From positions 1-64,000 of the forward strand of contig JARVGK010000005.1 of the NCBI GenBank assembly GCA_029762535.1: a DNA stretch of 64,000 nucleotides, read 5' to 3'. This stretch comes from Thermoplasmatota archaeon. GTDB taxonomy: Archaea; Thermoplasmatota; Penumbrarchaeia; Penumbrarchaeales; Penumbrarchaeaceae. The notes beneath the pieces were generated by a model, which did not search any database, was not told the origin of the DNA, and worked only from the letters and a program-made list of their open reading frames with translations. The position numbers and the translations under genes are program-made. Positions 26,087 to 63,610 of this stretch are shown here, one piece after another (position 1 is the first letter of the stretch; the number at the start of each line of letters is the position of its first letter).

Positions 26087-26087
26087 G

Positions 26088-27164
26088 CTGAGCATCGAGG
26101 GGAGAAAGGACGATCATATCGATATATGTCTGACCGAGAAGGTTTCAGCGGAGAGGAACTGGTGGGATGACGTCATGTTAACCCACGAGGCGATCCCCTC
26201 ATGCGATCTAGATGACGTTGACCTGAGAACGTCCTTTTTAGGCAGGAGTCTCGAAGCACCCATCATCATATCGGCAATGACCGGGGGGTCCAAAAGGGCT
26301 CTTGAATACAACAGGATGATGGCCAAAGCTGCACAGGAGTTCGGTCTGGGCATGGGGGTTGGATCCCAAAGGGCCGGTATCGAAAGGCCGCAGTACAGGG
26401 CCACTTACGAGGTAGTTAGGGATTATGATGTCCCGCTGCTCATGGGCAACATCGGCGCCCCTCAGATAGTTAGGGCGAAGGACATGGAGGATGCCGCCCT
26501 AATGATCTCATCATCGATCGATATGATAGGGGCTCATGCGGTATGCCTCCATCTGAACTATCTTCAAGAGGTTGTCCAGCAGGAAGGTGAAACACGGGCT
26601 GAGGACCTGATCGTGCGCGTTAAGGGATTATCCTCCCGTTTCCCGATCGTGGCGAAGGAGACAGGTGCTGGTTTATCACGTAGTTCGGCAGTCGCTCTCA
26701 GGGATGCAGGAATTGCCGCTCTGGACGTTGGCGGAATGTCGGGCACTAGCTTTTCCGCGGTGGAATCTTTCAGGTCTAAGCCGGGAAAGGAGCGCCCGAT
26801 GCGCCTGGGAAGGGCGTTCTGGAACTGGGGGATCCCCTCTCCGGCAAGCGTCATATTCTCGAAAGTGGGGATCCCTCTGATCGCGTCAGGGGGGATAAGG
26901 AACGGGCTGGACGCCGCAAGGGGGATCGCCCTTGGCGCGGACTGCTCGGGTATGGCAAGAAACCTGTTGATCGCCGCTTCCAAAGGCTACGAGGATCTGG
27001 CACAGGAGATCGGAATGGTCATCGACGAGCTGAAAGCCTCCATCTTCCTGTGCGGAAAGGACAGCGCTCGAGCGTTGAAAGGATCTTGTGCGATAGTTGT
27101 TGGGCCCACAAGGGAATACCTTGGATATGAAGGTCACATAGATTATCCAGGGACCGGAATTTGA
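26088..27164 (+). CDS. fni: Type 2 isopentenyl-diphosphate isomerase
   Basis: RKDDHI, SAMTGG, GVGSQR, HLNYLQE, KETGAG, GGTSF-like, ASGGIRNG. Start uncertain (CTG 26088 or ATG 26037). Confidence 0.95.
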   Translation: MSIEGRKDDHIDICLTEKVSAERNWWDDVMLTHEAIPSCDLDDVDLRTSFLGRSLEAPIIISAMTGGSKRALEYNRMMAKAAQEFGLGMGVGSQRAGIERPQYRATYEVVRDYDVPLLMGNIGAPQIVRAKDMEDAALMISSSIDMIGAHAVCLHLNYLQEVVQQEGETRAEDLIVRVKGLSSRFPIVAKETGAGLSRSSAVALRDAGIAALDVGGMSGTSFSAVESFRSKPGKERPMRLGRAFWNWGIPSPASVIFSKVGIPLIASGGIRNGLDAARGIALGADCSGMARNLLIAASKGYEDLAQEIGMVIDELKASIFLCGKDSARALKGSCAIVVGPTREYLGYEGHIDYPGTGI

Positions 27165-27230: not shown

Positions 27231-28511
27231 ATGGGCATACTGGATTGGATCAAGGGCTCGAAAAGGGCAAAGGCAAAACGCCACGATACCGAGCCCAAAC
27301 AGGTCCTTGCATCTAAGATCGAGAGAAAACGCGCTGATGAGATAGAGCGTGTGCGAAAGGAGCTCGAGAGACAGAGAGAGGCGAACAGGCTTCAGGAGAG
27401 GAAACTGAAGGAAATGGAGGCCAGGTTCTCCGAGGCCCAGTCACGCTTCGTCGAGCTTATGGAAAAACAATCCAAGAGCATAGAGATGCTGCTCGAGGTT
27501 AGAACTGATGAACCAACGTCCGTTACCTTGGATCAGTTCGAAGAAGCAAAGATGCCCCCCCACAATGGAAATGTAGGACCAGAAGATGGTCCTTCCGAGG
27601 AGGATGTTGACAGAGGTGACATACTCAAAGATAAGACGTTCGATAATTTCGTTGTGGACGATTCCAATCGTTTTGCCTATCTTGCGGCGGAAGCCGCGGC
27701 CACAGGGATCGGACGAAAATACAATCCCCTTTTCGTTTACGGACCCCCGGGGGTTGGAAAGACCCATCTGCTCCACGCTCTCGCGAACAAGATGCTCGAG
27801 AACAAGCCCGATCTCAAAGTGATGTATTCCTCCACAGAGGTCTATACGGACGAGATAATAGCCGCCATAGAAAGGGACGATCTGAAGAGCTTCAGGAAAA
27901 GGTATCACGACCTGGACGTTCTCCTCATCGATGATGTACAGACCTTATCCGGAAAGGAGACGACACAGATGGAGTTCTTCCATCTGTTCAACCATCTGTA
28001 CAATGCCGGAAAGCAGATAGTTCTGTGTTCTGACAGGCCGCCGATGGACATCAAGGAGCTGGAGAGCAGGCTTAAATCCAGGTTCGAGGGCGGTCTTATC
28101 ATCGATATAAACATCCCCACATTCGAGGGCAGGAGGCAGATACTCTACAACCTCTCGATGCGTAACGGCCTATCTCTCTCGACCGAGGTCATGGATTACA
28201 TGGCCTACTATCTCGATTCGAACATAAGGGAACTGGAGGGTGGTTTCAACAGGGTCACCGCCTATGCCTCACTGATGAAGGAGCCGATCACCATCTCGCT
28301 CGTGCGGAAGGTTCTCGAAGGAGTGCTGTTGGGAAAGCCCGGGTCGATGACCGAAAAGAAGCACGTGATGGAGATCCCTTCATCGGAACTTGAGGATGTG
28401 CCGCCCGGGCTGATCGTAAAGAACAAGGTTCGTCCTGTCGATCATGAACTTGAAAAGGAGACGGACCTCCTCGAAAAGGAACTGCTCAAGGAGCTCAAAC
28501 TCTCCAAGTGA
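27231..28511 (+). CDS. DnaA/Hda-family AAA+ ATPase (DnaA domain III only) with N-terminal coiled coil; no domain IV
   Basis: TFDNFVV..SNRFA, YNPLFVYGPPGVGKTHLLHA, LLIDDVQ, EFFHLFN, SDRPP, RLKSRFEGGL, NIRELEG. Confidence 0.92.
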   Translation: MGILDWIKGSKRAKAKRHDTEPKQVLASKIERKRADEIERVRKELERQREANRLQERKLKEMEARFSEAQSRFVELMEKQSKSIEMLLEVRTDEPTSVTLDQFEEAKMPPHNGNVGPEDGPSEEDVDRGDILKDKTFDNFVVDDSNRFAYLAAEAAATGIGRKYNPLFVYGPPGVGKTHLLHALANKMLENKPDLKVMYSSTEVYTDEIIAAIERDDLKSFRKRYHDLDVLLIDDVQTLSGKETTQMEFFHLFNHLYNAGKQIVLCSDRPPMDIKELESRLKSRFEGGLIIDINIPTFEGRRQILYNLSMRNGLSLSTEVMDYMAYYLDSNIRELEGGFNRVTAYASLMKEPITISLVRKVLEGVLLGKPGSMTEKKHVMEIPSSELEDVPPGLIVKNKVRPVDHELEKETDLLEKELLKELKLSK

Positions 28512-43484: not shown

Positions 43485-46400
43485 TTATTCTGAAATATCA
43501 TCATCTGCGGTCTCAGGTGCGCCGTCCTCATTATGCGGAGAGATCTCCTCTGATAGCTCGAAAACACCTTTGCTTATGCTCATCGTGGATATCCCGTCAT
43601 CATCCTTTATCACCGAGTCGGTCTTCCTTACGAGATCGTCCAGGTCCATGGCTTCCACCTCACCCGGTTTGATGGGAACGTCATCGAGCGAGGGCGAGGA
43701 GATGTTTTGAACGAGGAACTCGTCCATATCCTGCTTGCTCTTCTGGATCTCGGCGAGCTTTTCGCGCTTTATCCTCTTCTCTTCCTTCCTCTTGTAGAAG
43801 CCGTAACCGAGGTATCCTGCATATCCAAGGCCGGCAAGAACGAGAATGACAAATATGACCACAAGTAAATAGGCCCATATCGGCCATTCGCCCTCGTGAT
43901 TGGCTATCACGACCGATGCGGTGAACTCGTGATACTCGTAGCCGTCGAACGCTCTCATTTCGAACACCCTTTCTCCGTCTTTGTACCTGTTGGTGTCCAC
44001 ATCGAAGCTGAAGGTGTTCTCCAGAAGGGTGGTGTTGATCCAAGAGCCGTCCCTGGCCTTAAGCTGTACCAGTCTCGCATATCCGGGTTCGACAAGGACG
44101 ACCCCAGTTATCTTCAGCGTTCCAACGACCTTCTCCCCGTTATCCGGTGAGGATAGCATTACGTTCCACGATCTAATGGACCTTGAGACGGATAGGGTGA
44201 AGTTGTAGAGGAGCGAGTAACCCGAGGAGTTAACCTGTATCGAGACGTTGTGGTCCCCGATCTGGTCAACGTCGGGAGTCCATGCAAGCAGGTTCCTGAA
44301 CGGGTCGAACTCCATTCCATTCGGCCCAAATAGAAGGGTTATCGCGGGGATGTCACCTTGGGGATCGGTGACTATGATCTCGTAGCTCCATGGCATCATG
44401 TCGAAGAGCTCGGTCCGCGGAGTCGTATGAACCTCCGGTGGAAGGAATCTTTGGATCACCCTTATTCTGAATGTGTACAAGATCTCCTCTTCATCCCTGT
44501 CAGTAACACTTATCTTGAACAATATGGGTTCGGGATAGAATCTGGATGCTGTGAATGTGAATTCCCCGCTAAGTGGGTCCAAAACTGCGCTCTCACCCTC
44601 GACAAGCAGATATTCAAGACGGTCATCAGGGTCGATATCCTCGGCGGTTATGTTGAATTCGTAGATGTCACCGACATGGACCTCAATATATTCCGGGGGT
44701 AATGATATGAAGTAAGGCGGGTCGTTCTTGTTTATCACGTTGAGGACGAACCTGTACGTTCTTGAGTCCATGCCATCCGTGACTTTTATGATGAGGGGGT
44801 GCAACCCGACATGGGAATTGTTCACATCCCATACCAGGGTCCGGTTGTTCTGGAGGAACATGCCGGGAAGCTCGTTGTAGGTGAAAGTGGCGTTGTCACC
44901 CTCTGCATCATAGAAGGTCGGTGAGAATATCCAGCGGGTGTCCTGGAGTATGTCGGTCTGAGGTAGTGTTTTCAAGGCCGGTGCATCGTTGACAGGAGTT
45001 ACCTCGACGACGATGTCGGTGATCATTATTTGTAGGCCACTGCTGTCCGTTATTCTTATTAGAGGGTAAACAAGACCTGTCCAGTTGTCGTTCGATTCGG
45101 TCGAGGATGTATCGTTGAACGCGTCGGCCTTCAGGTACCTACCCCCAACTAAGGAAAAGTTCACGAATGAAGTGTTGATAAGTCCGGGAAACACTTCTAT
45201 TGTCAGATCTTCGATGGGGGTAAGGTCATCGCTGAGATATGCATATAGGTCCAGAAGCTTTGGATCACAGGTATCCTCCTCAAGTGATAGCGCCTTGGGG
45301 TATCCTGAGAATACAGGTGGGAGATCGAGATCGATATCAAACTCGTTTATTACGATCCCTCCGGGAGCCTTGGAAAAGAATCGGAAAGGAACATGATGGT
45401 TGCCATCGAGCTGAACTTCGAGCGACCTCAGTTCCGAATTGATCTTCTCCGATACATCATCAACTGCCACCTGATGGTCGTACCTGATATCCAAAGAACT
45501 GAGGTTGAATATGGTGGACCTCTCTATTGGATCGCTCGTCGAGCAGCTGAAGCGCAGAGGAAGCCTGATATAGTTGTGGTACGAGGTGCTTAGTTCCGGG
45601 TCGGGTTCAATGTTTTTTATATAATCGGAGACGACATCCGATATATCTCCGGAATTTACCTTATCATTGAGCCGGTCGCCGTTGTAACTCCATATGAGGT
45701 TGGAACCGATCCAGATCGATGGGGTATTAAAGGGAAGGGTGTCGATATCAAATCGATCGTTGATCACGATATTGCCTATTCCCTTTGATGTGATGCCGTC
45801 CTTGAATACAGCACCGGAGCAGATATCCTTGTATCCATCGCCCCTTAGGTCTGCGTCGATTACGATGGATGAGCCGAACATGGCCCCATTCCTGCTGTCA
45901 TACAGTATGTCCTTCTGACCTTGGGACCTCGAATATAGGACGATCTGGCTGCCGGTGCCGGGATCCGGCGCTCCTATGGCGAACTCCAAATCGCCATCAT
46001 CGTCGATATCATATGAGGATGATACATACGATCCGAATCCATTTATCAGCGGTGCTGAGATCATTTGATCGAGAACGGCATCCGGAGGATCGGATGCATC
46101 GTAGATGAGAACCTTGCGGTCCGAGTTCGCGGAGGCCCCTATCGCAAGCGTATCCGAGCCAGAGCCAAGGGTGTCCTTTATAAACCCCATGAACGAGAAG
46201 CCGGACAGGGAGCCATCGCTCACCGGGTCGATCTCGAGGTCCTGAATGGTGTTGAAGGAGGAGGATCCAAAATAGATATGAACCGCATCTTCGGATGCTA
46301 TCGCTATATCGTCAATACCATCATCGTTCATGTCCCCGCTGGAGACGAACCTGCCAAATTCGGAGGTCGAATCCGGTTCGATAACGTTGATCAATCTGGT

Positions 46401-47453
46401 CTTGTCCGAGAAATCAGGGTTTGTGGCATCGTACTTGAGTATGTAGACCTTGCCGGACCCGGAGTTGGCATCAGGAGCGCCGACTATGATCTCTTTCCAT
46501 CCATCGTCGTCTATGTCCCCTACCGCCACCGAGGCGCCGAATGATTCAAGGGTCGTGTTGCCCAATAAAGTATCTTCGGTATTCGTGCCGTAGCTGTTCC
46601 TTACATTGTAGAGGTGGACGGCCCCTTCCTGGTCCTTCCCTCCGCCCGGAGCGCCTACAACGATATAATCTATGGAAGAGGTGACCTTGAAGGTATCGGA
46701 TATGGATGTGGAATAATACGCGAACTCTTCTGGGCCGTTGGCCATGACCTCCTTTATGAATGAACCGGAGGAGTAATGGACCCTGTAAAGCACTCCGTAG
46801 TTGAGATCCCCATCCGGGGCTCCGGTAATTAGGGTGTCAGCGGTCGTTGACTTGATCTTGCCGGCATTTATGAGGACAGCTCCCATTCGATCTCCGTCAG
46901 TGTCTCCTTCAACGTTATAGGTGATATATTCATCAGACCTTTGGTATCCTATAAGGTCCAATGACATGTGTTCCATCTCTGCTCCCACGGGAAGTATTGT
47001 CTCGAAAATGAAAGGGGAAGCGGTTCCTGCATCGAAAATTGCGAAGTTCTGTCCCAGGGAACCGCGGGTCTGGCGTCCCCACGCTCCAAGATGATAGGTC
47101 ATGTCGCTTTCTAAGATCGATGGGAAGTCCATGTCGTTGTTCTTCGTGCCTATTCTTATCCAGGGGTCGATCGGATAAGAGGCGGGCTCGCTCGGATGAT
47201 GGACCGGGCTCAGGGAGAGCTTTGTGGATAGGACCTTTGCGCCTCTGGGGATAGGTATGTGATAACTGTCGTTGAGAGTCTTCATTTCATTGTGCACGTA
47301 CAATCGCGATCCCTGTTCCAGAGGGATCGTGTCTGTGTTCCTGGAAGGGTCCGATATTCTTGACGGTCCGCTTTCATATCCGGTGGCCTGCAGGAACACA
47401 ACGGATGTGGCCAGCATCATGCATACGATCATAAGGATGTAAGTGGCTTTCAA
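43485..47453 (-). CDS. Large surface protein: FG-GAP repeats, cadherin/Ig-like domains, C-terminal TM
   Basis: Signal peptide; GDIDDDG..EIIVGAP and GDMNDDGIDD repeats; VNDAP/NDPP cadherin-like linkers; TM helix and acidic tail. Confidence 0.85.
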   Translation of the reverse strand: MKATYILMIVCMMLATSVVFLQATGYESGPSRISDPSRNTDTIPLEQGSRLYVHNEMKTLNDSYHIPIPRGAKVLSTKLSLSPVHHPSEPASYPIDPWIRIGTKNNDMDFPSILESDMTYHLGAWGRQTRGSLGQNFAIFDAGTASPFIFETILPVGAEMEHMSLDLIGYQRSDEYITYNVEGDTDGDRMGAVLINAGKIKSTTADTLITGAPDGDLNYGVLYRVHYSSGSFIKEVMANGPEEFAYYSTSISDTFKVTSSIDYIVVGAPGGGKDQEGAVHLYNVRNSYGTNTEDTLLGNTTLESFGASVAVGDIDDDGWKEIIVGAPDANSGSGKVYILKYDATNPDFSDKTRLINVIEPDSTSEFGRFVSSGDMNDDGIDDIAIASEDAVHIYFGSSSFNTIQDLEIDPVSDGSLSGFSFMGFIKDTLGSGSDTLAIGASANSDRKVLIYDASDPPDAVLDQMISAPLINGFGSYVSSSYDIDDDGDLEFAIGAPDPGTGSQIVLYSRSQGQKDILYDSRNGAMFGSSIVIDADLRGDGYKDICSGAVFKDGITSKGIGNIVINDRFDIDTLPFNTPSIWIGSNLIWSYNGDRLNDKVNSGDISDVVSDYIKNIEPDPELSTSYHNYIRLPLRFSCSTSDPIERSTIFNLSSLDIRYDHQVAVDDVSEKINSELRSLEVQLDGNHHVPFRFFSKAPGGIVINEFDIDLDLPPVFSGYPKALSLEEDTCDPKLLDLYAYLSDDLTPIEDLTIEVFPGLINTSFVNFSLVGGRYLKADAFNDTSSTESNDNWTGLVYPLIRITDSSGLQIMITDIVVEVTPVNDAPALKTLPQTDILQDTRWIFSPTFYDAEGDNATFTYNELPGMFLQNNRTLVWDVNNSHVGLHPLIIKVTDGMDSRTYRFVLNVINKNDPPYFISLPPEYIEVHVGDIYEFNITAEDIDPDDRLEYLLVEGESAVLDPLSGEFTFTASRFYPEPILFKISVTDRDEEEILYTFRIRVIQRFLPPEVHTTPRTELFDMMPWSYEIIVTDPQGDIPAITLLFGPNGMEFDPFRNLLAWTPDVDQIGDHNVSIQVNSSGYSLLYNFTLSVSRSIRSWNVMLSSPDNGEKVVGTLKITGVVLVEPGYARLVQLKARDGSWINTTLLENTFSFDVDTNRYKDGERVFEMRAFDGYEYHEFTASVVIANHEGEWPIWAYLLVVIFVILVLAGLGYAGYLGYGFYKRKEEKRIKREKLAEIQKSKQDMDEFLVQNISSPSLDDVPIKPGEVEAMDLDDLVRKTDSVIKDDDGISTMSISKGVFELSEEISPHNEDGAPETADDDISE

Positions 47454-47555: not shown

Positions 47556-47642
47556 GCAGGGGTAGCCAAGCTCGGTCAACGGCACCGGACTTAAGATCCG
47601 GTCCTCAGCGGTTCGAGGGTTCGAATCCCTTCCCCTGCACCA
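47556..47642 (+). tRNA. tRNA-Leu(TAA), CCA encoded, no intron
   Basis: Acceptor GCAGGGG/CCCCTGC, anticodon arm CCGGA-CTTAAGA-TCCGG, long variable arm, T-loop GGTTCGAATCC, ACCA end. Confidence 0.96.
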
Positions 47643-49459: not shown

Positions 49460-50485
49460 TCAATGAACGTGAAGGTCGAGCGAGACCATATATGAGTCAG
49501 GGGAGTATTGATGAACTTCCCTAACCCCCTCCAAGGAATAGACCCTATCATTATTGATCATCGTATCATCGATCATCCTGAGGGTATCCTGGACTCCAGC
49601 GGTCTCTGATATAATATACAGATGTATCCTTCCGCGCTCGATACAATTGAGGGCTATCTCAAGGAAATCAAGGGAAGAGTGCGGCAGGTTCATGACCACT
49701 CTATCGAATGGTCCAAGTGTAGGTGCCACATCCCGTGAATCACCCAGATAGCATGAGACCCTATCCTCGAGAGAGTTCAGGGAAATATTCATTTCCATGT
49801 ATCGTATGCATTCAGGATTGAGGTCTATCCCTACGATCTCCCTGGCACGGCCGTGTCTTGCTATGGTAAGTGCGAAGGGCCCTACCCCGCAGAACATATC
49901 TAGGACTCGTTCATCCTGTGTGAGCGATGCGATCCTCTGCCTTTCGGTCGAGAGCCTCGGGGAGAAATACACCTTGGAGGGATCGAGCTTCAAGCGGATA
50001 TTGTTCTCGATATGAACGGTTTCGAGATCGGGCCCACCAAGAAGGACCTCCATGTCCCGCAGCCTGTATTCTCCAATCACTCCTCTGTCGAGGGCTACAT
50101 GTTTGATGTTCTTGTTGACCAGAGTTAGAGCCTGAGCGATGTCATCACCGTAATCAGCGAGACCATCCGGAAGTTTTAGTATGCAAACATCTCCTATGAT
50201 GTCGAAGGAGGATGGGAGGAGGTCCTTCAGTTCCCTCGGCACATCGACGACATCCTTGTAGGATCTAGGAGGCCTAAATTTTGTCCTACCTTCACGAACG
50301 GTTAGCTCCCCAAGATCCGCTACGCCCTGTTCGACTAATGATTTATCCTCCCAGATGAGAGGTAGAAGGACCTTCCTGCCCTCCTTTTCGATTAGTACAT
50401 CTGCGTTAATGTAACCCCTATCGTTCAGTATCCGCCTTGTACTCTCGGCGTCCCTATTCTTAACTGCAAGGTAGAGCATTCTCAT
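49460..50485 (-). CDS. trm5: Trm5/Met-10-family tRNA methyltransferase
   Basis: LPSSFDIIGD, VYFSPRLSTER.RI, LDMFCGVGPF, DLNP, VMNLP. Confidence 0.88.
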   Translation of the reverse strand: MRMLYLAVKNRDAESTRRILNDRGYINADVLIEKEGRKVLLPLIWEDKSLVEQGVADLGELTVREGRTKFRPPRSYKDVVDVPRELKDLLPSSFDIIGDVCILKLPDGLADYGDDIAQALTLVNKNIKHVALDRGVIGEYRLRDMEVLLGGPDLETVHIENNIRLKLDPSKVYFSPRLSTERQRIASLTQDERVLDMFCGVGPFALTIARHGRAREIVGIDLNPECIRYMEMNISLNSLEDRVSCYLGDSRDVAPTLGPFDRVVMNLPHSSLDFLEIALNCIERGRIHLYIISETAGVQDTLRMIDDTMINNDRVYSLEGVREVHQYSPDSYMVSLDLHVH

Positions 50486-50532
50486 TATATGGCATATTTT
50501 TCTATGAGTAGATAAAATCAACGGTCATATAA

Positions 50533-50805
50533 TTATGTTCGAATTCCTTGACTCTTTAACCTTCGGATGCCTTTCTCGGTGATCCTGAAGTAAGCTCCCT
50601 TTATTGATCCGCAGGTCCTTCCCGTGGAATGAGGACATGGGATGCAGGCGGTCCCGCACTCTGGGCCTATCCTTTCGATATAACCAAGGGATTCTAGATG
50701 TCTCATCATATGGGATATATGAGCGGCACCCAGTCCGCTCTCTTGAGCGATGGTCATCACATCCTTCCCGCCCATCATAAGATGGAGTAACTCGGTTAGG
50801 TTCAT
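50533..50805 (-). CDS. FeoC-like winged-helix protein
   Basis: wHTH followed by C...C..C.....C; directly after feoB. Confidence 0.75.
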   Translation of the reverse strand: MNLTELLHLMMGGKDVMTIAQESGLGAAHISHMMRHLESLGYIERIGPECGTACIPCPHSTGRTCGSIKGAYFRITEKGIRRLKSQGIRT

Positions 50806-50814
50806 TTTAACACC

Positions 50815-52947
50815 TCAAATCCATGGGACCGCGGACAGTGCGAGCTTGAAGAAAAGGGCCGCCATGTAGGCGAATCCCGTGTTGTATACGATCGAGAAAA
50901 GAGCCCACTTGTATGAACCGGTCTCTTTTCGGATGACCGCTATCGCCGGGATGCACGGTACGTAAAGCGTGAAGAACACCAAGAAAACGAAGGCCCCTGA
51001 CCGATCGAGTCCGGAATTGTTCTTGATACCGCTTTCAATATCTTCCTCACCCGCTCCGGTCAGAATTCCCATCGTTCCGAGAACTATCTCCTTTGCGACG
51101 ATGCCGAACATCAGGGAAACGACCAGCTTCCAGTTGAATCCAAGAGGGCTGAAAACGGGTTCTATCAGCTTTCCGATGTCGGAGGCGAAAGAGTTCTCCA
51201 GACGATCTTCCTCGCCATCATTGTCTTGGCCCCGTAGATAATGTATGGACCCGTCCTCGATTCCGAGGTAGGTCAATCCCCAAACGATGACCATCGCCAC
51301 GACTATGACCGTGGCCGCTTTGCGGATGAATAGATACATGTTCATGGACCCAGACCTGATGGCTTCCTTGATGCTGGGTAAGCTGTAAGGTGGTAGGTCC
51401 ATGATAAGGGGGGAGGGATCACCTCTCAGAATTACCTTCGTAATTAGCAATGAGGAGATGATCAGACCGATCACCCCTATTGAGTACATCGAAACAACGA
51501 TGATTCCGGCATAGAATCCGAAGAAGATCGATGAAAGGAGCATAAGGACAGGCAACCTTGCCGAGCAGGTTATGAAGGGGACGAGAATGATCGTCGCTAT
51601 CCTGTCTCTGAGATTGGGGATGGACCTGGAGGCCATGATCGCGGGTACGTTGCATCCGAAGCCCATTACGAGCGGTATGAAGCTCCTTCCCGGAAGCCCC
51701 AGCCTGGCCATGGTGCGGTCTATTACGTATACACCCCTTGCCATGTAACCAGAGTTCTCCAGAAGTGATATCATGAAGAACAGTATGAATATCATCGGAA
51801 AGAAGACCAAGACCGAACCCACACCCGGTATCAGGCCGTCCCTGAATATCGATACGTACCATGTGTCACCGAATGATGAGAGGGAATTGGAGAAAAGCTC
51901 GAACAATGACTCCACGATCTCGGATAGTGGGTTGCCGATGAGATATGTCAGGGTGAAAACAGAAAGGAGCATTCCGGCGAATATGGGTATTCCCAGCCAT
52001 TTACTGGTAAATGCACTTTCCATGGTCCTTACGATACCGCTCTCGCTTACCCTATCATGTCGCGGGACCATCTCGTCTATGAACTCGTATCTAGAATCGA
52101 TCAGGTCAAGGATGAATTCATCACCCCCATCCATAGATCCATCGAGATCAGACGGATCGATAGTATGTGTCTTTACCATTGACCTCAATTGAGCGTCCCC
52201 TTCGATCCACCTCAAGGCCAGGAACCTTTCGTTGAACCTGGAGAGGTACTTTTTGTCACATGACCAAGCGAAGCCTTCGATGATCCTGATGTATCTCTCG
52301 ATGTGGCGGGGATAGTCAATTATCAGTGGTCTTCTGGGGACAAGGTTCACATCTGAGGTTTGATGGAGATGCGGCCTCTCGACTTCGTCATCGGCGCTTT
52401 TGTGCATGAAACGGTCATGCATCATGGGATGCATGACGTCTGACCTGATGTGATGATGGGTCTCGTGCAGTAGGGAGTCTTTGAGATCGGTTATTCCGAT
52501 GTTCTTGGTGGAGACGGTTGGGACGATTGGACAGCCGAGTTTCGATGAGAGTTGTTGCAGATCGGCGTAGATGCCTCTATCCTTCATCATATCCGCTTTG
52601 TTGATCGCAAGAACGACCGGTATGTTGGATTCGAGGACCTGGACCGCCAGATACATGGAGGTCCTCAGGTTCGCCCCATCCAGAACCACAACGAGAAGAT
52701 CATAATCTCCTATGAGCAGATATCTGGGAACGATCTCCTCGTCCGAGGATCCCGGGTTCAAGCTGTACGTTCCTGGTAGATCGGTGACATGGAAGCGGCA
52801 TCCTTCATTGACGAAGCTACCTTCAAGAAGGTCGACTGTCACTCCTGACCAGTTACCGGTTCTCCCGAACCCTCCGGTGAGAGCGTTGAACAGGGTAGTC
52901 TTACCAGAGTTGGGGATCCCTGTCAGGGCCACCTTTATATCCTTCAT
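50815..52947 (-). CDS. feoB: Ferrous iron transporter B
   Basis: GIPNSGKT, GNWSGVTV, DLPGTYSL, NKAD, GFGCNVPA, CSARLP, LYVPC. Confidence 0.96.
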   Translation of the reverse strand: MKDIKVALTGIPNSGKTTLFNALTGGFGRTGNWSGVTVDLLEGSFVNEGCRFHVTDLPGTYSLNPGSSDEEIVPRYLLIGDYDLLVVVLDGANLRTSMYLAVQVLESNIPVVLAINKADMMKDRGIYADLQQLSSKLGCPIVPTVSTKNIGITDLKDSLLHETHHHIRSDVMHPMMHDRFMHKSADDEVERPHLHQTSDVNLVPRRPLIIDYPRHIERYIRIIEGFAWSCDKKYLSRFNERFLALRWIEGDAQLRSMVKTHTIDPSDLDGSMDGGDEFILDLIDSRYEFIDEMVPRHDRVSESGIVRTMESAFTSKWLGIPIFAGMLLSVFTLTYLIGNPLSEIVESLFELFSNSLSSFGDTWYVSIFRDGLIPGVGSVLVFFPMIFILFFMISLLENSGYMARGVYVIDRTMARLGLPGRSFIPLVMGFGCNVPAIMASRSIPNLRDRIATIILVPFITCSARLPVLMLLSSIFFGFYAGIIVVSMYSIGVIGLIISSLLITKVILRGDPSPLIMDLPPYSLPSIKEAIRSGSMNMYLFIRKAATVIVVAMVIVWGLTYLGIEDGSIHYLRGQDNDGEEDRLENSFASDIGKLIEPVFSPLGFNWKLVVSLMFGIVAKEIVLGTMGILTGAGEEDIESGIKNNSGLDRSGAFVFLVFFTLYVPCIPAIAVIRKETGSYKWALFSIVYNTGFAYMAALFFKLALSAVPWI

Positions 52948-53267: not shown

Positions 53268-55139
53268 GTGTTCTGGAGAGAAATGGGTGTTCAGACCATG
53301 AAGCCAGTCCTAAATCCGCTCAGGGCTCAGATAGAATCGAAAATGACAGAGGAATTGGGTTTTAATAATATCTTTGATATGTTCCTTCATTCCTCAAGAA
53401 AGAATCCAGAAAAGGTCCTGGCGATGCACAAGCTAGGAAAGGGGCATTGGGGCTCACTCACATATGATGAGGTAGAAAAGGGGTCCCTCGATTGCGCCGC
53501 CGCATTCCTGAAAAACGGAATAAAGAAGGGGGACAGGGTCGCTTTCATATGCAACAACCGATACGAATGGCTCATACTTGATCTCTCGCTTCACAGGATA
53601 GGTGCGGTTAACATATCGAACTACGTCACACCCGATCCGAAAAAACTGGTGGAGACGGAGGTCTGCTTCAACATAAACGATTCACAATGTCGAATGCTGT
53701 TCGTCGCGGAAAAATACCTGGAAAGGGTCATGGAGATATACGATCAGGGTAAGATGCCGACTATCGAGAAGGTCGTCGTATTGACCGATTCAGCGGATCG
53801 AAAGAAGATCGGTGAACTTGATACCTTCTCTGAATTCGTTAAGGTCGGGCAGGAATCCAGAAAAATGCTCGAGGATTATAAGGAGGTCGTGAACCTAAAT
53901 GATCTTGCCACGATCATATACACATCTGGTTCGACCGGGGTTCCAAAAGGAGTGATGCTTACCCATGGCAACCTCATATCAAATGCACAGAGCCTGACAA
54001 CATTCATCGATCTTAAAGAGACAGATGTGGAACTCAGCTTCTTGCCTCTTGGGCATGTTTTCGAGCGTATTATCAATTATATAATCCTGAGAATATCAGG
54101 CACCATAGGTTATGCTGAATCCATTGAGACCATAGCGGATGATGTACAGTTCGTCAAACCTACCGTTTTTCCCGCTGTACCTAGGGTCTTCGAGAAGTTC
54201 AAGGCAAAGGTAGAGGAAAATGCCAGGTCCAAAGGTGAGTTATCCTTCAAGATATACAAATGGTCAACGAAAGTAGGTAGGGATTATTCATTGGGAAAGA
54301 GGGGTTTTCCAATGAATATAAAATACATGATGGCCAAGAAAATCGTGTTCGACAAGGTTGTTGACAAGCTCGGGGGAAATGTTAGGTTCTTCGTTTCATC
54401 GTCCGCTCCTCTAAGCGAAGATACTGCTATGTTCTTCAAATCGATGAACCTGGAGATCCTGGAGGCTTATGGGATGACCGAGGCCGGTCCATTGATAAGC
54501 ATTAACAGGAACAACAGGGCGAGGATCGGTACCGTTGGAGAGGCCCCTCCCGAAATAGAGGTGAAGATCGCAAATGATGGGGAGATACTTGTCAGGGGGC
54601 CATCAATAATGAAAGGTTACTGGAACAGACCTGATGCTGATAAGGAGGCTTTTCTAAACGGATGGCTCGCTACTGGCGACATAGGAGTGATGTCAAAAGA
54701 TGGTTATCTTAAGATAACGGACCGTAAGAAGAATCTAATCAAGACATCAACTGGCAAATATGTACCCCCTGCTCCCATAGAGGACAAGCTGGTATCGAAC
54801 CAGTATGTCAGCCAGGCAATCGTTATAGGGGAAGCCAGACCTCACTGCTCGGCAATAATCGTCCCGGATTTCAAGCGTCTCGAGGATTATGCCCAGCATA
54901 ACCAACTGCATTACACATCGATTGACGATCTCATGAATAATCCATCGGTGAAGTCCTTTTACGAGGAGTTGATCAAGAACGAGACCAAGGACATGGCGGC
55001 CCATGAACAGCCAAAGAAGGTAATCCTCCATTCAAAGGAATGGACGTGGGAATCTGGAGAGCTCACGCCAACTCAGAAGGTCAAGAGGAGTGTGATCACT
55101 AAGATGTTCAAAGACGAGATCGACAGGATCTATTCGTAA
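53268..55139 (+). CDS. Long-chain fatty-acid--CoA ligase (AMP-binding)
   Basis: IIYTSGSTGVPKG, FLPLGHVFER, AYGMTE, TGDIG..ITDRKK, LTPTQKVKR; true start may be slightly downstream. Confidence 0.92.
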   Translation: MFWREMGVQTMKPVLNPLRAQIESKMTEELGFNNIFDMFLHSSRKNPEKVLAMHKLGKGHWGSLTYDEVEKGSLDCAAAFLKNGIKKGDRVAFICNNRYEWLILDLSLHRIGAVNISNYVTPDPKKLVETEVCFNINDSQCRMLFVAEKYLERVMEIYDQGKMPTIEKVVVLTDSADRKKIGELDTFSEFVKVGQESRKMLEDYKEVVNLNDLATIIYTSGSTGVPKGVMLTHGNLISNAQSLTTFIDLKETDVELSFLPLGHVFERIINYIILRISGTIGYAESIETIADDVQFVKPTVFPAVPRVFEKFKAKVEENARSKGELSFKIYKWSTKVGRDYSLGKRGFPMNIKYMMAKKIVFDKVVDKLGGNVRFFVSSSAPLSEDTAMFFKSMNLEILEAYGMTEAGPLISINRNNRARIGTVGEAPPEIEVKIANDGEILVRGPSIMKGYWNRPDADKEAFLNGWLATGDIGVMSKDGYLKITDRKKNLIKTSTGKYVPPAPIEDKLVSNQYVSQAIVIGEARPHCSAIIVPDFKRLEDYAQHNQLHYTSIDDLMNNPSVKSFYEELIKNETKDMAAHEQPKKVILHSKEWTWESGELTPTQKVKRSVITKMFKDEIDRIYS

Positions 55140-56026
55140 AGGTCCATAGCTGCTTCCATTATCCTTTGAGCGGAGGTAACCATATCACCCTCTTTAAGAA
55201 AAATATTGGTGAGACCAAGTCTGGATCTCCATTTCCTCTGTTTCCTTACCAGGTCCATATTGCTTCTTACGATAGCATCGAATAACTCATCATTTGATAC
55301 TACTTTATTCATATGGCCGATAATATGGTTCACACCTATCATCTCAAGACCGGGAAAGTCTCGTGTGTAGCCCGAGTCGATGATCGATCCGACCTCTGAT
55401 AGCCATCCCTTTTCGAGCATTGTCATCGTGCGTTCGCCTATCCTTGCCTTGAGCTCTCGGTCCGATCGGTCTATGAAGAACCCTTTCCAGTTCACTCCCA
55501 TGGTACTGATCCCCTTTATGGTATCTTGCAAAGGCCCCAAAGACGTGATGAGCGCCCTCGAGAGCCTTCTGAGATCATTAGGATGTGTCATGAAAGCCTT
55601 TGCAGGGTCCAATTCAAACAATAGATCGTGTGCATCATGAGGACCCAGATCCTTGATGATCTCCCTAATATCATTGGCAATACAAGGGTCGTGGGATGGA
55701 CCATTCAGTCCCTTTATCAGCCTCTCCATATAGAGCATGCTCCCCCCACAGGCGAGGGGAAGCTTTCCTCTTTCTCTTATCCTCATTGATGTGGGGATCG
55801 CCATATCAAGAAATGATCGAACGGTCATTCTTTCATTTAGACCGATAAGATCGATCATGTGATAAGGTGTATCTTTATCGATAGTGAACTTACCATTACC
55901 TATCCTAACGTCCTTGTAGAAACATCCGGTATCGACGGATATTATCTCATATGGAACCTTTCTGCAGATATGCTGTGCGATCTCTGTCTTTCCTGAACAG
56001 GTGGGTCCGGTTAAGATCAACATCAA
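55130..56026 (-). CDS. miaA: tRNA dimethylallyltransferase (MiaA/IPT)-like protein, diverged
   Basis: GPTCSGKT, EIISVD, YHMID, GGSMLY, HPNDLRRLSRAL, RI..R..ML..G..EV, RKQ..W. Confidence 0.8.
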   Translation of the reverse strand: MMLILTGPTCSGKTEIAQHICRKVPYEIISVDTGCFYKDVRIGNGKFTIDKDTPYHMIDLIGLNERMTVRSFLDMAIPTSMRIRERGKLPLACGGSMLYMERLIKGLNGPSHDPCIANDIREIIKDLGPHDAHDLLFELDPAKAFMTHPNDLRRLSRALITSLGPLQDTIKGISTMGVNWKGFFIDRSDRELKARIGERTMTMLEKGWLSEVGSIIDSGYTRDFPGLEMIGVNHIIGHMNKVVSNDELFDAIVRSNMDLVRKQRKWRSRLGLTNIFLKEGDMVTSAQRIMEAAMDLYE

Positions 56027-56115: not shown

Positions 56116-57573
56116 TCAGAAGCTTGGTCTGTAAATGACCTTGGGCTTGAGCCCTTTGAGCTCGGAGAGTAACCCTCCCTGAAGGGATGATAGGACATCG
56201 GTGTTGGGTATGTTGGACTCGATGACCGTTGTCCTGCCGTGCCTGCCAAAAGAGATTACCTTTGTTTGAATTATGCCAAGCCTGTCAAGTTCGTTCAGGA
56301 GGTTGACCACCTGTCTTCTACCCAATACAATCAAGTCAAGCTTCGAGGCGTAGTTGGAATAGGTTTCGACCACTTCTTTTGTGGTTGTCTTGATCCTTCC
56401 GAATATCTTCAGCTGGATGATCGAATACAGGACGATCTTGCTCTGGAGTGGTAATGATTTCACGACCTGTTGAACACGGTCGGTCTCTATCTTCTTCTGG
56501 GCCATTTTGACGTACAGGTCGGTGAGTTTGGGGGAGTGGTCCCTTTCGGCAAGCTCGGCCGAGACCCTGAGTAGGTCAAGAGCTTTTCTTGCATCACCAT
56601 TCTCCTGAGCAGCGATCCCAGCGCATAGCGATACCACATTGTCCTGGATCGAACCTTGGTAGAACGCTTCCTTCGCCCTGTGTTCGAGTATGTCCTTGAG
56701 CTGTAAAGCATTGTAGGGCTCGAAGATTATCTCTTCAGAACCCAAGGACGATCTAACTCTTGGTTCGAGATAATCCATTATCTTTAGGTTGTTTGAGATA
56801 CCGATTATCGCGACCCTTGTCCTTTGAAGGTCCTCGTTGATCCTGGTGAGTGTATATAATATGTCGTCTCCTACCTTCATGATGAGCCTATCTATCTCAT
56901 CAAGGATTATTATGACCAGTGATGAAGCCTCATCAAGCTTGGAGAGCATCCTTGAATGGACCTCGTCGATGGGGAGCCCGGACACAGGAAGTCTGTCCTC
57001 GTCCGAGAAAGGAAGAAGCCTGTTCGCCACCTGGGTCATGACCCGGTAGGCGGTGTCCATTTGCTGGCAGTTGATGTAAATGGACCTGATCTGCCTGTGC
57101 AGCTGTTGGGACATTTCGGGACCGAGCACATCATCATGATCGATTATGGAGAGTGCGGAATTGAGGCATCTGACCGATTCCGAATCTGACATCTCTTCCT
57201 GAATCTCCATGAAAGTCCTGAGATTTCTTTCCTTGATGAAGTTGGATTTTTCCTGGAGGGCCTTCATCAGGATCTTGGACACAACGGTCTTTCCGGTCCC
57301 GGTCATGCCGAATATAATGATGTTCGAGGGGGTATCGCCCCATAATGCAGGTATCAATATCCTTGCGATACTTCCGATCTCTCTCTCACGATGGGGGAGA
57401 GTATCAGGTATATAGGAATACCTGAGAACCTCGCGGTTCTTGAAGATCTTTCCCCCGAGATCGAGGATATCAAAGATATCAGTAGCTAACCCATTCAAAC
57501 TTTTCACCGTTCCCCAGCTTGATCGGATGATGCAGGACGGAGGTATATGCGGCCGGATATTCCGGAGCTTCAC
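56116..57573 (-). CDS. cdc6: Orc1/Cdc6 replication initiator
   Basis: IFKNREVL..YIP..LPHRE, GMTGTGKT, YINC, ILDEID, FEPYNA.QL..IL, GDARKALDLLR, C-terminal wHTH with GRHGRT; true start may be about 70 nt downstream. Confidence 0.95.
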   Translation of the reverse strand: MKLRNIRPHIPPSCIIRSSWGTVKSLNGLATDIFDILDLGGKIFKNREVLRYSYIPDTLPHREREIGSIARILIPALWGDTPSNIIIFGMTGTGKTVVSKILMKALQEKSNFIKERNLRTFMEIQEEMSDSESVRCLNSALSIIDHDDVLGPEMSQQLHRQIRSIYINCQQMDTAYRVMTQVANRLLPFSDEDRLPVSGLPIDEVHSRMLSKLDEASSLVIIILDEIDRLIMKVGDDILYTLTRINEDLQRTRVAIIGISNNLKIMDYLEPRVRSSLGSEEIIFEPYNALQLKDILEHRAKEAFYQGSIQDNVVSLCAGIAAQENGDARKALDLLRVSAELAERDHSPKLTDLYVKMAQKKIETDRVQQVVKSLPLQSKIVLYSIIQLKIFGRIKTTTKEVVETYSNYASKLDLIVLGRRQVVNLLNELDRLGIIQTKVISFGRHGRTTVIESNIPNTDVLSSLQGGLLSELKGLKPKVIYRPSF

Positions 57574-59272: not shown

Positions 59273-62200
59273 GTGATCGCCATGAAGCATCGTTTTGATA
59301 GAGAAAGGGCATATATTTTTGCTTTGATGTTCGTAGTATCCTCATCATTCATATTGATCGGGGATGATACAGTAATGGTAACGGGTGAATCGCTATCATT
59401 ATATGGGCATGTGAGAGCTGATAACAATGAGATTTGGGCACTTTCAGGTGATGAGAACATAGAGGCATCGGCCGGTTTGTCATTTATCGGAGAGAGCATG
59501 ACCGGACCAGGAGGAAGGCTCGGAAGTTATCTTTGGTCTGGAGATCTGAATGGTGATGGTTATGATGACATAGCAATGTCAGCCCCCCATCTTGAAGGAG
59601 CGCTTAGCGTTAGAGAAGGGGGATTGCTCTATATATTCTACGGATCGAAAGAGTTACAAAATGGAGTTGTGGATATAGAAACAGCCGTTCCGGATATCGT
59701 TATCAGAGGAGGGGCCGAGGATTCGAAGCTTTTGACATCGTTTGCCGTTGGAGACATCGACAACGACGGCAACTTCGATCTCGTTTTGGGTATACCTTCC
59801 CAGCCTTCATGCGGCAGACTTTACATTCTCTGGGGTGACGGCAATTGGAGCGGGGAGATCGATCTCTTCGATCCAGGCAAACTCAATCCCAACGGGGATC
59901 CTTATGGTTTCATTCGAGATGATGATCATTTGATACTGGCTGGTCACATCGCACCGGTCCCTTGGCCCGAATCGGATTATAAGATAGGCCAATCCGTTGT
60001 AGTTAGCGATCTTGACGGGGATTCGTACGATGATGTGGTCTTCAGCGCTCCGGGATGGAACAAGGTCAATATTATGTGGGGAGGGCCGAACAGATTTCAG
60101 CTTGGAGATGAGATGACCATAATTCAAGACGACCAGAACAGTGGCCTCTTCGGGCAGAGCGTGATCTCTCTCGATATGAATGGAAATCAAATGCCAGACC
60201 TGGCTATTAGCGGACCGCTGAGAAACCATCCGACAACACTATATCAGCAGACGGGCACTGTAATGGTGATTTTCGATGCGGGGGATCTCAGAGGAACTGT
60301 TAATATCAACGTCGAGGACACGGTAAGGCCGTTCATATATGGAAACGATCCAAATGATAATTTTGGCAGGGTGATACTGTCAAAGGACATCAACCATGAC
60401 GGGCGTGATGATCTTATAGTTGGCGCACCTTACAGTGATGGACCGGACGACACGAGGTACAACTCGGGCTCCATACACATATATTTTGGAGGACAGATAA
60501 ACCAATTTCCAGTGATTATGGATTCTGAAACCGGGGCAGACGTCATAATATACGGAGCAACGAAAGAAGGGCCTACATATCCAGGTGACAGATTGGGGAC
60601 AGTATTCGAATTGGGTGATATCAACTCCGACGGTGAACACGGTTTGATTATTGGATATCCAGACGTTTCGGTCCAGGATGCCGAGAAGGCCGGAATGGTG
60701 GCCTATTATACATATCAACAAGTGTTCTCATCCCCTCCTCGTTCGATAGATCTCAAGGATATTGATCCGACATTCAGGATATTCGGGATAGACATGCAGG
60801 ATAGGCTGGGATATTCCCTTTGCATCGCTGACATGGATGGGGACGGCGCTCATGAGTTGATCATAGGTTCTCCGGCCTCGGATGGTATTGAGAATACCAG
60901 GCCTTCCTGTGGTGAGGTCCATATTATTAGAGGGTCCAAAGTAGGAATCGACTCGCTGACATTATCCGGTATGGGGACACAGGACGGTTTTGTCCTGTGC
61001 GGTAAAGGCGATACGACGATAACCGTGGGATATTCCCATTCGGAAGATAACGACCTATTGTTATCCATGGATGTGGAATTGCAGGATCTTGGGATAAAAA
61101 TGACCATTCCTTTAGCTACTGGTGAATATCCAATAATTGATACACCCTATGAGATGATAAAACCCGTAAGCAAGGTGATCGTATCGAAAACGACCAATGG
61201 TGCACAGGCATCGGCGGTGATCGAATTCACATGGTCCTTTCCTTCTGGGGAATACGATGTGAAGATTATTGTATCCTCATCAAAATGGAATTATTCCAGA
61301 TTGTTTTCCAAAGCCATATTATCAGAGGATGTTCTAATATTTTTGGAGAACTATGAACTATTCAGGAACGGTCAAAGAACCGTACATGGTTCCGAATGGT
61401 TTGGACCGGATGATAGAATCGATATCAATGGACTATCGCTTTATTATGATACTGTACCTCCTATTGAGGTCATAGATGGTCCTTTCGAAATAAGCCTTTT
61501 GGTGAACGCAATATCGATCCATACTCAGGAATATGTACCCGACATGAGTTTGAATTTTACCATCACCGACGAAGATAGTATCATACTTACCGTAAAGGCC
61601 TCTCCTATCATCGGGATATTTCCCACAGGTATCCCATCGGAATTCATTCCTTTTATATCGGGGCAAATCGTGTTAGAGCTTCATATTGACCAAACCCCTC
61701 CCGATATCCCATCGAACCTAGTTCTCGATCCTGGAACTTTTGGACATGAGGATTACGGAACTGAAGGTGAATGGGAGATCAGATGGGATGATGGCAGGAC
61801 CAACGGAGGTGATGCAGGATCAGGAATATGGGCCTATGAGGTAGGTATCAAGGAGGAGGTAAAGATAGCCATGCATCCTGGAGGTCTGCTTGGGACATAC
61901 TACAACGACGATCGTTTCATCGAGGAAGGCCTATCAATCGTGGATGAACAGATCGACTTCAACTGGGGCAATTACCCGCCTAAACCCGAGATCATTCCAT
62001 TGGGTTTCTCTATAAGATGGCATGGGTGGTTAATGCCGGACCAGAATATCAAGACGAGGTTCACGATATGGGGAAAAGGTGGGAACTCCCTTCTGATCTT
62101 TGACGATCAGAGGCTGTTGGAATGGAACGATGTCGAGTTCAGAAGGAGTTCAGGCTACGTGGACCTAGTCGGCGGAGAGATCTATTATATCGAACTGTAC

Positions 62201-63610
62201 TTTCGACAGAAAGGGGATCTTGAAAACTCTCTTTTTCTAAGATGGGACGACGAGAGCGGTAATTCCGTTGAGATATCATCGAGTTCCATGTATTATCCAT
62301 CAAACACTTCATCAATAGATATCGAGTCCTCCATATCGGAGATCTTCAACGTTTCCGTCAAGGCGATAGATTGGGTAGGTTCGATCTCTGGCCCGGCCTT
62401 TTCTCAAGGGATCATTGATCTCGATCAACCAGTTATCGATCTTACAAGATATTCAAGTTGGTACAACTCATCAAGGGTCGAAGTACATTTTGCGCTATTC
62501 GACCCTACGATTATGGGAATGGAGGGTTCAGGAATAGATGGGGATAGCATATCATACAGATTGATGCACGAAACAGAAACGGAATATTCCCCCCCTTACA
62601 AAGAAGAGATATGGTTGAAATATGGGGATTCTCTTTCCTTTGTCGATGTGATGATGAGGCTTGAGTTGGATGGAACGTGGAAGGGATCTTTACAGATATT
62701 CGCATCGGACAGGGTAGGGAATACCGTACAATCATCCTCACTCAGCTTAGGTGTTGACATGATCGCTCCTCAGTTCGACATGGTCCAACCTTCCACCTTC
62801 ATAATCCACAATACAGCTGACCTATCTTTTGCTCTCAGGGTCGAGGATATTCAAGGTTCCGGTGTCAATGGGGAGACAATTGCATACCGAACGAGGATGA
62901 ACGACACCGACTGGTCAGGTTGGATGGATATTGGCCGTGAAACAGCATCAGAGCAGTTGATGATCGAATTCACTCACAAGTTATCAGAAGGTACGAATTT
63001 CATACAGTTCATGGCCGAGGATATTGTAGGCAATATGGGAATATCACGAGAATATGAGCTTAGGGTCAAGGTGCCGACAGTGAACAATCCTCCCACCCCC
63101 CTGATATCAAGCCCGATCAACGGAACAAGCTATTCTGAGGGGCATCCAGTAATACTGGATGCATCTGGTTCCACTGATGATGGTATCGGTTTATTTCCTG
63201 AATTGAGGTTCACATGGTCCTCGAACAGGACTGGATTATTAGGTACCGGTAAGGTGATCTCCATTAACATCCTTACAACAGGCTGGCACAGGATCACGCT
63301 TTTCGTCGATGATGGTTCTCCAGGGAATAACGTATCTGACCATGTTGATATATACATAAGGAGGGCTGTGAACCCCAACGGTACGGTCAACCCAGAACCA
63401 AATGCGACGGATGAGGCATATCGAACTATACTTGTGATATCAGCTTTGGCAGTTGTGATCATCGTCATTATCGTATTCATAATCCTATTCGTAAAGAGAT
63501 ATGGTAATGAGAGGGGTGCCGAGATTAGAATAGATTATAAAGAAGAAACAGATGACGATATCGATTACATGATAAAGAGCAGATATGATGAATTCGATTC
63601 AGAAGAGTGA
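59273..63610 (+). CDS. Large surface protein: FG-GAP propeller, PA14, Ig-like and PKD domains, C-terminal TM
   Basis: About seven GD.NGDG.DD...AP repeats; GLLGTYYN..IDFNWG..FSIRWHG (PA14); LDASGSTDD..FTWSS (PKD); TM helix and acidic tail. Confidence 0.88.
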   Translation: MIAMKHRFDRERAYIFALMFVVSSSFILIGDDTVMVTGESLSLYGHVRADNNEIWALSGDENIEASAGLSFIGESMTGPGGRLGSYLWSGDLNGDGYDDIAMSAPHLEGALSVREGGLLYIFYGSKELQNGVVDIETAVPDIVIRGGAEDSKLLTSFAVGDIDNDGNFDLVLGIPSQPSCGRLYILWGDGNWSGEIDLFDPGKLNPNGDPYGFIRDDDHLILAGHIAPVPWPESDYKIGQSVVVSDLDGDSYDDVVFSAPGWNKVNIMWGGPNRFQLGDEMTIIQDDQNSGLFGQSVISLDMNGNQMPDLAISGPLRNHPTTLYQQTGTVMVIFDAGDLRGTVNINVEDTVRPFIYGNDPNDNFGRVILSKDINHDGRDDLIVGAPYSDGPDDTRYNSGSIHIYFGGQINQFPVIMDSETGADVIIYGATKEGPTYPGDRLGTVFELGDINSDGEHGLIIGYPDVSVQDAEKAGMVAYYTYQQVFSSPPRSIDLKDIDPTFRIFGIDMQDRLGYSLCIADMDGDGAHELIIGSPASDGIENTRPSCGEVHIIRGSKVGIDSLTLSGMGTQDGFVLCGKGDTTITVGYSHSEDNDLLLSMDVELQDLGIKMTIPLATGEYPIIDTPYEMIKPVSKVIVSKTTNGAQASAVIEFTWSFPSGEYDVKIIVSSSKWNYSRLFSKAILSEDVLIFLENYELFRNGQRTVHGSEWFGPDDRIDINGLSLYYDTVPPIEVIDGPFEISLLVNAISIHTQEYVPDMSLNFTITDEDSIILTVKASPIIGIFPTGIPSEFIPFISGQIVLELHIDQTPPDIPSNLVLDPGTFGHEDYGTEGEWEIRWDDGRTNGGDAGSGIWAYEVGIKEEVKIAMHPGGLLGTYYNDDRFIEEGLSIVDEQIDFNWGNYPPKPEIIPLGFSIRWHGWLMPDQNIKTRFTIWGKGGNSLLIFDDQRLLEWNDVEFRRSSGYVDLVGGEIYYIELYFRQKGDLENSLFLRWDDESGNSVEISSSSMYYPSNTSSIDIESSISEIFNVSVKAIDWVGSISGPAFSQGIIDLDQPVIDLTRYSSWYNSSRVEVHFALFDPTIMGMEGSGIDGDSISYRLMHETETEYSPPYKEEIWLKYGDSLSFVDVMMRLELDGTWKGSLQIFASDRVGNTVQSSSLSLGVDMIAPQFDMVQPSTFIIHNTADLSFALRVEDIQGSGVNGETIAYRTRMNDTDWSGWMDIGRETASEQLMIEFTHKLSEGTNFIQFMAEDIVGNMGISREYELRVKVPTVNNPPTPLISSPINGTSYSEGHPVILDASGSTDDGIGLFPELRFTWSSNRTGLLGTGKVISINILTTGWHRITLFVDDGSPGNNVSDHVDIYIRRAVNPNGTVNPEPNATDEAYRTILVISALAVVIIVIIVFIILFVKRYGNERGAEIRIDYKEETDDDIDYMIKSRYDEFDSEE

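Follow-up and report, generated by a model that had tools for sequence, protein, structure and literature searches.

Does a family of archaea carry a genuine MiaA-type tRNA prenyltransferase, and if so, which RNA would the enzyme modify? In the literature, i6A is described as absent from archaea and IPPT genes as missing there; archaea are said to handle the weak first pair of UNN codons by G37 derivatives or by an unmodified A37 (PMC7668247). A MiaA-like ORF was found in a Thermoplasmatota archaeon (GCA_029762535.1, contig JARVGK010000005.1), in a window of 64,000 nt, which is the whole stretch of DNA analysed here. The features of the window that bear on the question are as follows.

55130..56026, minus strand: MiaA-like tRNA A37 dimethylallyltransferase ORF, 297-298 aa, with a P-loop core and an insertion domain (about residues 107-175)
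56116..57573, minus strand: cdc6/orc1, upstream of the MiaA-like gene and on the same strand, a fixed neighbour across the family
53268..55139, plus strand: long-chain acyl-CoA synthetase-like gene (AMP-binding), convergent, with a 10-bp overlap with the 3′ end of the MiaA-like gene
49460..50521, minus strand: Trm5-family m1G37 methyltransferase gene, part of the local backbone
47556..47642, plus strand: tRNA-Leu(UAA) with G37, not a substrate
25202-26086, plus strand: ipk (NF040647, 110 bits; cut-off 120)
26037-27164, plus strand: fni/IDI-2 (TIGR02151, 348 bits; cut-off 281)

The MiaA-like protein and its motifs

The ORF is intact, with no internal stop codon, and comprises 298 codons from a TTG or 297 from an ATG at 56023, the latter being the form on record. 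The protein scores 149.9 bits on TIGR00174, a narrow pass of the cut-off of 148.65, and nine of the 11 family copies pass the same cut-off (excluding the G113 contig described below). It scores 141.4 bits on PF01715 (IPPT; cut-off 23.6), while PF01745 (IPT) gives 19.8 bits, which is under its cut-off. One clade member already carries the automatic NCBI name tRNA dimethylallyltransferase. The best solved relatives by sequence are the E. coli MiaA-tRNA complexes (E 2e-29, 106 bits); the match to yeast Mod5 (3EPH) is weaker (E 9e-15, 58 bits), and the hop adenylate IPT matches with an E value of 5e-5. An AlphaFold model (pLDDT 89, pTM 0.81) has the two-domain layout, with the insertion-domain helices 114-163 modelled at pLDDT 83-92. 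Its TM-scores are 0.78 to E. coli MiaA (the tRNA complexes being best), 0.74 to Mod5, 0.61 to plant AIPT, and 0.54 to Tzs. The protein ends 32 residues past W266, and no C-terminal Cys/His finger was found.

A preliminary description of this DNA had proposed a full-length MiaA layout that retains the P-loop, Asp, and Arg, and the alignment bears this out: T9, D32, and R199 correspond to the catalytic T19, D42, and R217 of E. coli MiaA and, together with the P-loop residues K13 and T14, are kept in 27-28 of the 28 clade members. The same description had stressed altered motifs. All of the motifs that it quoted are present, namely GPTCSGKT (7-14), DTGCFY...IGNGKF (32-47), GGSMLY (94-99), IGV (230-232), and RKQRKW (261-266), but the degree of alteration was overstated. 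Using residue roles taken from PMC8234997 and PMC2836551, I compared the 11 residues of E. coli MiaA that are important by mutagenesis and structure (D42; T19, Y47; K23, T24, H67, R217; K56, R167, R170, K280; PMC8234997). Nine are identical here (T19, K23, T24, D42, Y47, K56, R167, R170, and R217), K280R is conservative, and H67Y is changed. The reference consensus had also been too strict. E. coli MiaA itself has DSALIY (no Q) and GGTMLY, and two of the supposed alterations are E. coli-like, while H67Y was absent from the list. The tRNA-binding residues K56, R167, R170, K280, Q282, and W285 of E. coli correspond to K46, R154, R157, R261, Q263, and W266, and none of the 28 clade members deviates at T19, K23, D42, R170, R217, Q282, or W285. 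The markers that separate tRNA-IPTs from adenylate-IPTs (PMC2836551) are mostly of the tRNA type: the insertion domain is present, position 285 is Trp (W266) rather than Lys/Asp, and the residue after the catalytic Asp is Ser/Thr (T33) rather than Lys/Arg.

The clade departs as a whole from bacterial MiaA at several positions that are well conserved in bacteria: H67Y (27/28), A55G (27/28), T284K/R (26/28), P57, R276 (a hydrophobic residue in the clade), and R281. L110H is found in 17 and an acidic residue at position 247 in 15 of the 28. The DMAPP-binding H67 is Tyr in the source-genome copy as well, and since 17 of 237 bacterial homologues also have Tyr there, the change is probably tolerated. 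Among the same 237 sequences, T108S occurs in 20, A55G in 29, and K280R in 54. T54N and Y251V are mostly limited to the subclade of the source genome, whose copy also has R130A and E173I, both unique within the clade, and keeps 36 of 49 bacterial-conserved columns (bacterial median 46); judged by these columns, it is among the more worn copies. Because the residue of hop IPT that matches T54 contacts adenine through its backbone (PMC2836551), the T-to-N change need not break adenine binding or change the acceptor. With R276 and R281 lost and K/R gained at 283-284, the surface that binds RNA could have been re-tuned. At the prenyl-pocket positions mapped from PMC2836551, the protein is near-canonical (I230, N256, and L259 versus V249, T275, and L278 in E. 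coli), which lends no support to the earlier suggestion of a longer prenyl donor.

Distribution and inheritance in the family

Twenty-eight distinct clade members were recovered by a profile search, which covered 1.8 billion representatives, together with a word search. The source genome belongs to the Thermoplasmatota family EX4484-6 (Ca. Penumbrarchaeia), whose members are uncultured archaea of sediments; of 23 further family genomes, 10 have an orthologue. No orthologue was found in 377 genomes of the phylum outside this family, where the one match lies on a contig of genome G113 (L013, C35). This match was rejected as an archaeal member; the contig has 72% GC and bacterial-type neighbours, its protein falls outside the clade, and it is probably a misbinned bacterial contig. 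On this contig of a Thermoplasmatota bin, miaA adjoins a gene for a GT4 glycosyltransferase (BshA-like).

Within the family, the MiaA-like gene always lies downstream of cdc6 and convergent with the acyl-CoA synthetase gene, and this synteny is shared by 11 genomes and four unbinned contigs. Since eight of the 13 gene-negative family genomes also have no orthologous cdc6 in the assembly, their absence is uninformative, and the informative tally is 11 of the 15 genomes in which the locus is assembled. In four genomes the absence is clean: cdc6 abuts the synthetase gene, about 35-45 bp away, with nothing left of the MiaA-like gene. One of them, ex4484_6, branches within a group of relatives that carry the gene (bootstrap 90), and thus has lost it. 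The remaining three make up a genus in a weakly basal position, which may have split off before the gene was gained.

The orthologues form one clade with a support of 100/99 and a long stem branch (0.5-0.63), defined as one side of that branch against 43 bacterial-type sequences in a tree with no outgroup root and with no supported bacterial sister group. For 10 genomes, the tree of the MiaA-like protein has a topology identical to that of the cdc6 tree and is 4.7 times as long. Family members are about 41% identical in this protein versus 73-78% for its neighbours. The dN/dS ratio is 0.17-0.23 versus 0.04-0.06 for the neighbours in three pairs of genus g6, the only usable ones, as dS is saturated for most pairs, including every pair with the source genome. 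GC and GC3 track the host. The mean patristic depth of the clade is 3.7, compared with 4.0 for the bacterial sample. The source genome is also distant in cdc6 (65-70% identity), which accounts for part of the divergence of its copy. As regards the pseudogenisation that the preliminary description had envisaged, the 11 genome copies contain no stops or frameshifts and dN/dS is about 0.2. These results indicate that the gene is old, vertically inherited, and under real but loose constraint, and that it is fast-evolving and dispensable. A wide distribution had been expected to make the gene less novel; it is indeed widespread, in one family, and this distribution is what marks it as a genuine gene of archaea passed on by inheritance. 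That it is confined to one family speaks for transfer and, together with the similarity ranking, suggests a bacterial origin.

The preliminary description had also pointed to the local tRNA-Leu(UAA) with G37, to trm5, and to ipk-fni. The first two were confirmed, with the Trm5-family gene 4.6 kb from the MiaA-like gene. However, trm5 also stands beside the locus in a genome that has no MiaA-like gene, and because G37 and trm5 are both found in gene-less relatives, this context is uninformative. The ipk and fni genes are real but lie about 28 kb away, and they are a general DMAPP supply unlinked to the MiaA-like gene. A functional tie of the gene to trm5, tRNA-Leu, or ipk-fni was rejected. A sigma-70 promoter scan gave chance-level results, the method being unsuited to archaea.

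Other features of the region were observed in passing. In two relatives (L217:4277-4924 and L220:4263-4904), cdc6 and the MiaA-like gene are separated by a DUF8183/HTH_78 gene on the opposite strand. In the window, feoB (50815-52947, minus strand) and a small downstream ORF for a Cys-rich winged-helix-like protein (50533-50805, minus strand), FeoC-like by appearance, sit between trm5 and the acyl-CoA synthetase gene, and some relatives do not have the pair at this place. The window also encodes two large secreted surface proteins with FG-GAP repeats and C-terminal membrane anchors, at 43485-47453 (minus strand, 1322 aa) and 59273-63610 (plus strand, 1445 aa), the latter being a conserved neighbour upstream of cdc6. 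Directly after ipk-fni lies a homologue of the bacterial-type DnaA ATPase (27231-28511, plus strand; TIGR00362, 315 bits, cut-off 344; PF00308, 204 bits), with no match to the DNA-binding domain IV. Such a homologue, unexpected in archaea with cdc6, is present in 16 of 16 family genomes, in 2 of 2 sister-family genomes, and in several further families of Thermoplasmatota; open frames of 800-1500 aa often contain it as a domain, too.

Candidate tRNA substrates and partner enzymes

A36-A37-A38 is needed but not sufficient for modification by MiaA (PMC5699536). A list of such tRNAs, as the preliminary description had proposed, comprises only three in the source genome: tRNA-Ser(UGA), tRNA-Ser(CGA), and, after removal of a 21-nt intron, tRNA-Ser(GGA). 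The tRNAs for Phe, Tyr, Trp, Cys, Leu(UAA), and Leu(CAA) have G37. UCN codons make up about 6% of the codons in long open frames. In E. coli, MiaA has nine or ten substrate tRNAs, including Ser(UGA) and Ser(CGA), and Ser(GGA) is not in the list, while i6A37 in the human cytosol is found only on Ser(UCN) and Sec tRNAs (PMC5699536).

Co-evolution of position 37 with the MiaA-like gene was looked for by pattern searches, which miss intron-bearing tRNAs, and none was seen: G37 in Phe and Leu(UAA) and A37 in Ser are found in genomes with and without the gene alike, and the serine tRNA loop is the same in gene-less relatives and in most of the Thermoplasmatota listed. Thus, the substrate was already there, and the tRNAs are no independent sign of activity.

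Some further tRNA genes were noted. tRNA-Ser(CGA) has G37 in the sister family (G024:C76:9687-9728) and in families f7, f13, and f30, and A37 throughout EX4484-6; position 37 of this tRNA thus switches within the phylum. The tRNA-Trp gene (G000 C53:7507-7705) has a 125-nt intron with C/D-box-like motifs; guide introns with such motifs are known for archaeal pre-tRNA-Trp. There are three different tRNA-Cys(GCA) genes (C58:78659-78732, C82:383-454, and C100:366-437), all with G37, two of them on sub-kilobase contigs.

As for partner enzymes, neither MiaB nor a LOG-family gene was found in the 93% complete genome. The preliminary description had called for a check for miaB; the sole methylthiotransferase found is of the archaeal MtaB type (TIGR01578, 333 bits, cut-off 315; 186 bits on MiaB, cut-off 355), and thus plain i6A would be expected.

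Proposed function and its alternatives

Taken together, the MiaA-like gene is probably the product of an old bacterial transfer and encodes an enzyme of ordinary MiaA chemistry that would make plain i6A37 on two or three serine tRNAs, the first in archaea. I infer its bacterial origin, activity, substrate, and expression. i6A on a few tRNAs had been one option of the preliminary description; the three A36-A37-A38 serine tRNAs and the kept catalytic and tRNA-binding residues make it the best supported. A bacterial miaA probably entered an early member of family EX4484-6, landing between cdc6 and the acyl-CoA synthetase gene, and its descent has been vertical from then on. An A36-A37-A38 tRNA would have its anticodon stem-loop gripped between the core and the insertion domain (K46, R154, R157, R261, and W266), with A37 flipped into the channel of the enzyme. 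D32 would deprotonate N6, which would attack DMAPP held by the P-loop (T9, K13, and T14) and R199 to form i6A37. The predicted products are i6A37 on Ser(UGA), Ser(CGA), and, after splicing, Ser(GGA). As no MiaB was found, i6A37 would not be methylthiolated further, which resembles the situation in the human cytosol, and it may improve the A36-U pair on UCN codons. So small a benefit would fit the fast evolution of the gene and the clean loss seen at least once.

The proposed enzyme resembles bacterial MiaA (2ZM5/3FOZ) in its two domains, its length of about 300 aa, T19/D42/R217, the P-loop, and K56/R167/R170/Q282/W285. It differs in its archaeal host, in an identity of 27-34%, and in its patchy distribution and fast evolution. 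Its clade has H67Y, GTG[KR]x in place of GTAKP, and [RK][KS]Qx[KR]W in place of KRQxTW; no MiaB was found, the locus is not mutL-miaA-hfq, and the predicted substrates are only tRNA-Ser, in contrast to the nine or ten tRNAs of E. coli MiaA (PMC5699536). Mod5/Tit1/TRIT1 (3EPH) share the same chemistry, and plain i6A37 on Ser(UCN) would parallel the human cytosol, but the archaeal protein has no C-terminal zinc finger and is about 110 aa shorter.

Could the specificity have shifted after the transfer? An active RNA prenyltransferase might use another adenosine or RNA, relaxed loop rules, or another donor (GPP or HMBPP-like), and the changes H67Y, A55G, L110H, and T284K/R might then yield an undescribed nucleoside such as N6-geranyladenosine. 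The changes fixed near the acceptor and donor sites, including the acidic residue at 247 and the hydrophobic residue at R276, and the long stem branch are consistent with this. However, all of the catalytic and most of the tRNA-binding residues are kept, the prenyl pocket is near-canonical, canonical substrate tRNAs are available, and G37 would be a poor acceptor owing to a clash of O6 with the catalytic Asp and to its poor nucleophilicity (PMC2836551). Such a shift is unlikely.

Alternatively, the protein might be an enzyme of low or declining activity, or might bind tRNA with hardly any turnover, persisting under relaxed selection while it is being lost. The rate (4.7-fold faster than cdc6), a dN/dS four to five times that of the neighbours, the loss in ex4484_6, and T54N, Y251V, R130A, and E173I in the source copy all point this way. 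On the other hand, the uninterrupted frames, a dN/dS far under 1, and catalytic residues that do not vary in a clade whose depth almost equals that of the bacterial sample argue against decay, and the distance of the source genome explains part of the divergence. I consider this quite unlikely.

That the enzyme is an adenylate isopentenyltransferase like Tzs or the plant IPTs, releasing isopentenyl-AMP/ADP/ATP as a small molecule, is very unlikely. Adenylate IPTs (Tzs, 2ZE5; hop AIPT, 3A8T) share the core fold and the catalytic Thr/Asp/Arg, E228 stands at the place of Asp171 of Tzs (D/E in 15/28), and the neighbour is an AMP-forming ligase gene. However, this ligase gene persists where the MiaA-like gene is absent. 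Adenylate IPTs have no insertion domain and their A36-stacking Trp is replaced, whereas the archaeal protein keeps both, including the HPN..R..R motif (R167/R170) and the invariant W285. The profile scores (IPT versus IPPT), the fold ranking (MiaA > Mod5 > plant AIPT > Tzs), and the lack of a LOG-family hit in the genome searched likewise disfavour the free-adenylate option of the preliminary description.

Binning contamination or a recent non-functional transfer, as might be suspected from the singleton nature of earlier sporadic archaeal IPPT matches (PMC7049300) and from the G113 contig, is refuted by the shared synteny, the cdc6-congruent tree, the 100/99 clade, and a 115-kb contig with archaeal cdc6, trm5, ipk, and fni. 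Those earlier matches, in SMTZ-80 and MSBL1 SCGC-AAA382N08, are two single cases of putative function (PMC7049300) that share an IPPT domain in an archaeal assembly; in contrast, the present one is a syntenic, vertically inherited, family-level clade, a distinction drawn here by description only.

No paper describing this clade was found in a literature search, nor was miaA found to be mentioned in the Penumbrarchaeia paper. The clade is thus a new member of an established enzyme family, in a domain of life where it was not expected. It is the first lineage-level case that I could find, and its chemistry is probably ordinary. If plain i6A37 is indeed made, a whole archaeal family in which purifying selection maintains an intact MiaA would be the first genuine departure from the archaeal UNN rule. 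Close relatives with the same tRNAs and without the gene would offer a natural test of the worth of i6A37 on the archaeal ribosome. In a protein enrichment, as much as 90% of the archaeal 16S reads came from this class (PMC12220078), and since the genome from this published enrichment (L143 = G008) carries the MiaA-like gene, the gene is directly testable.
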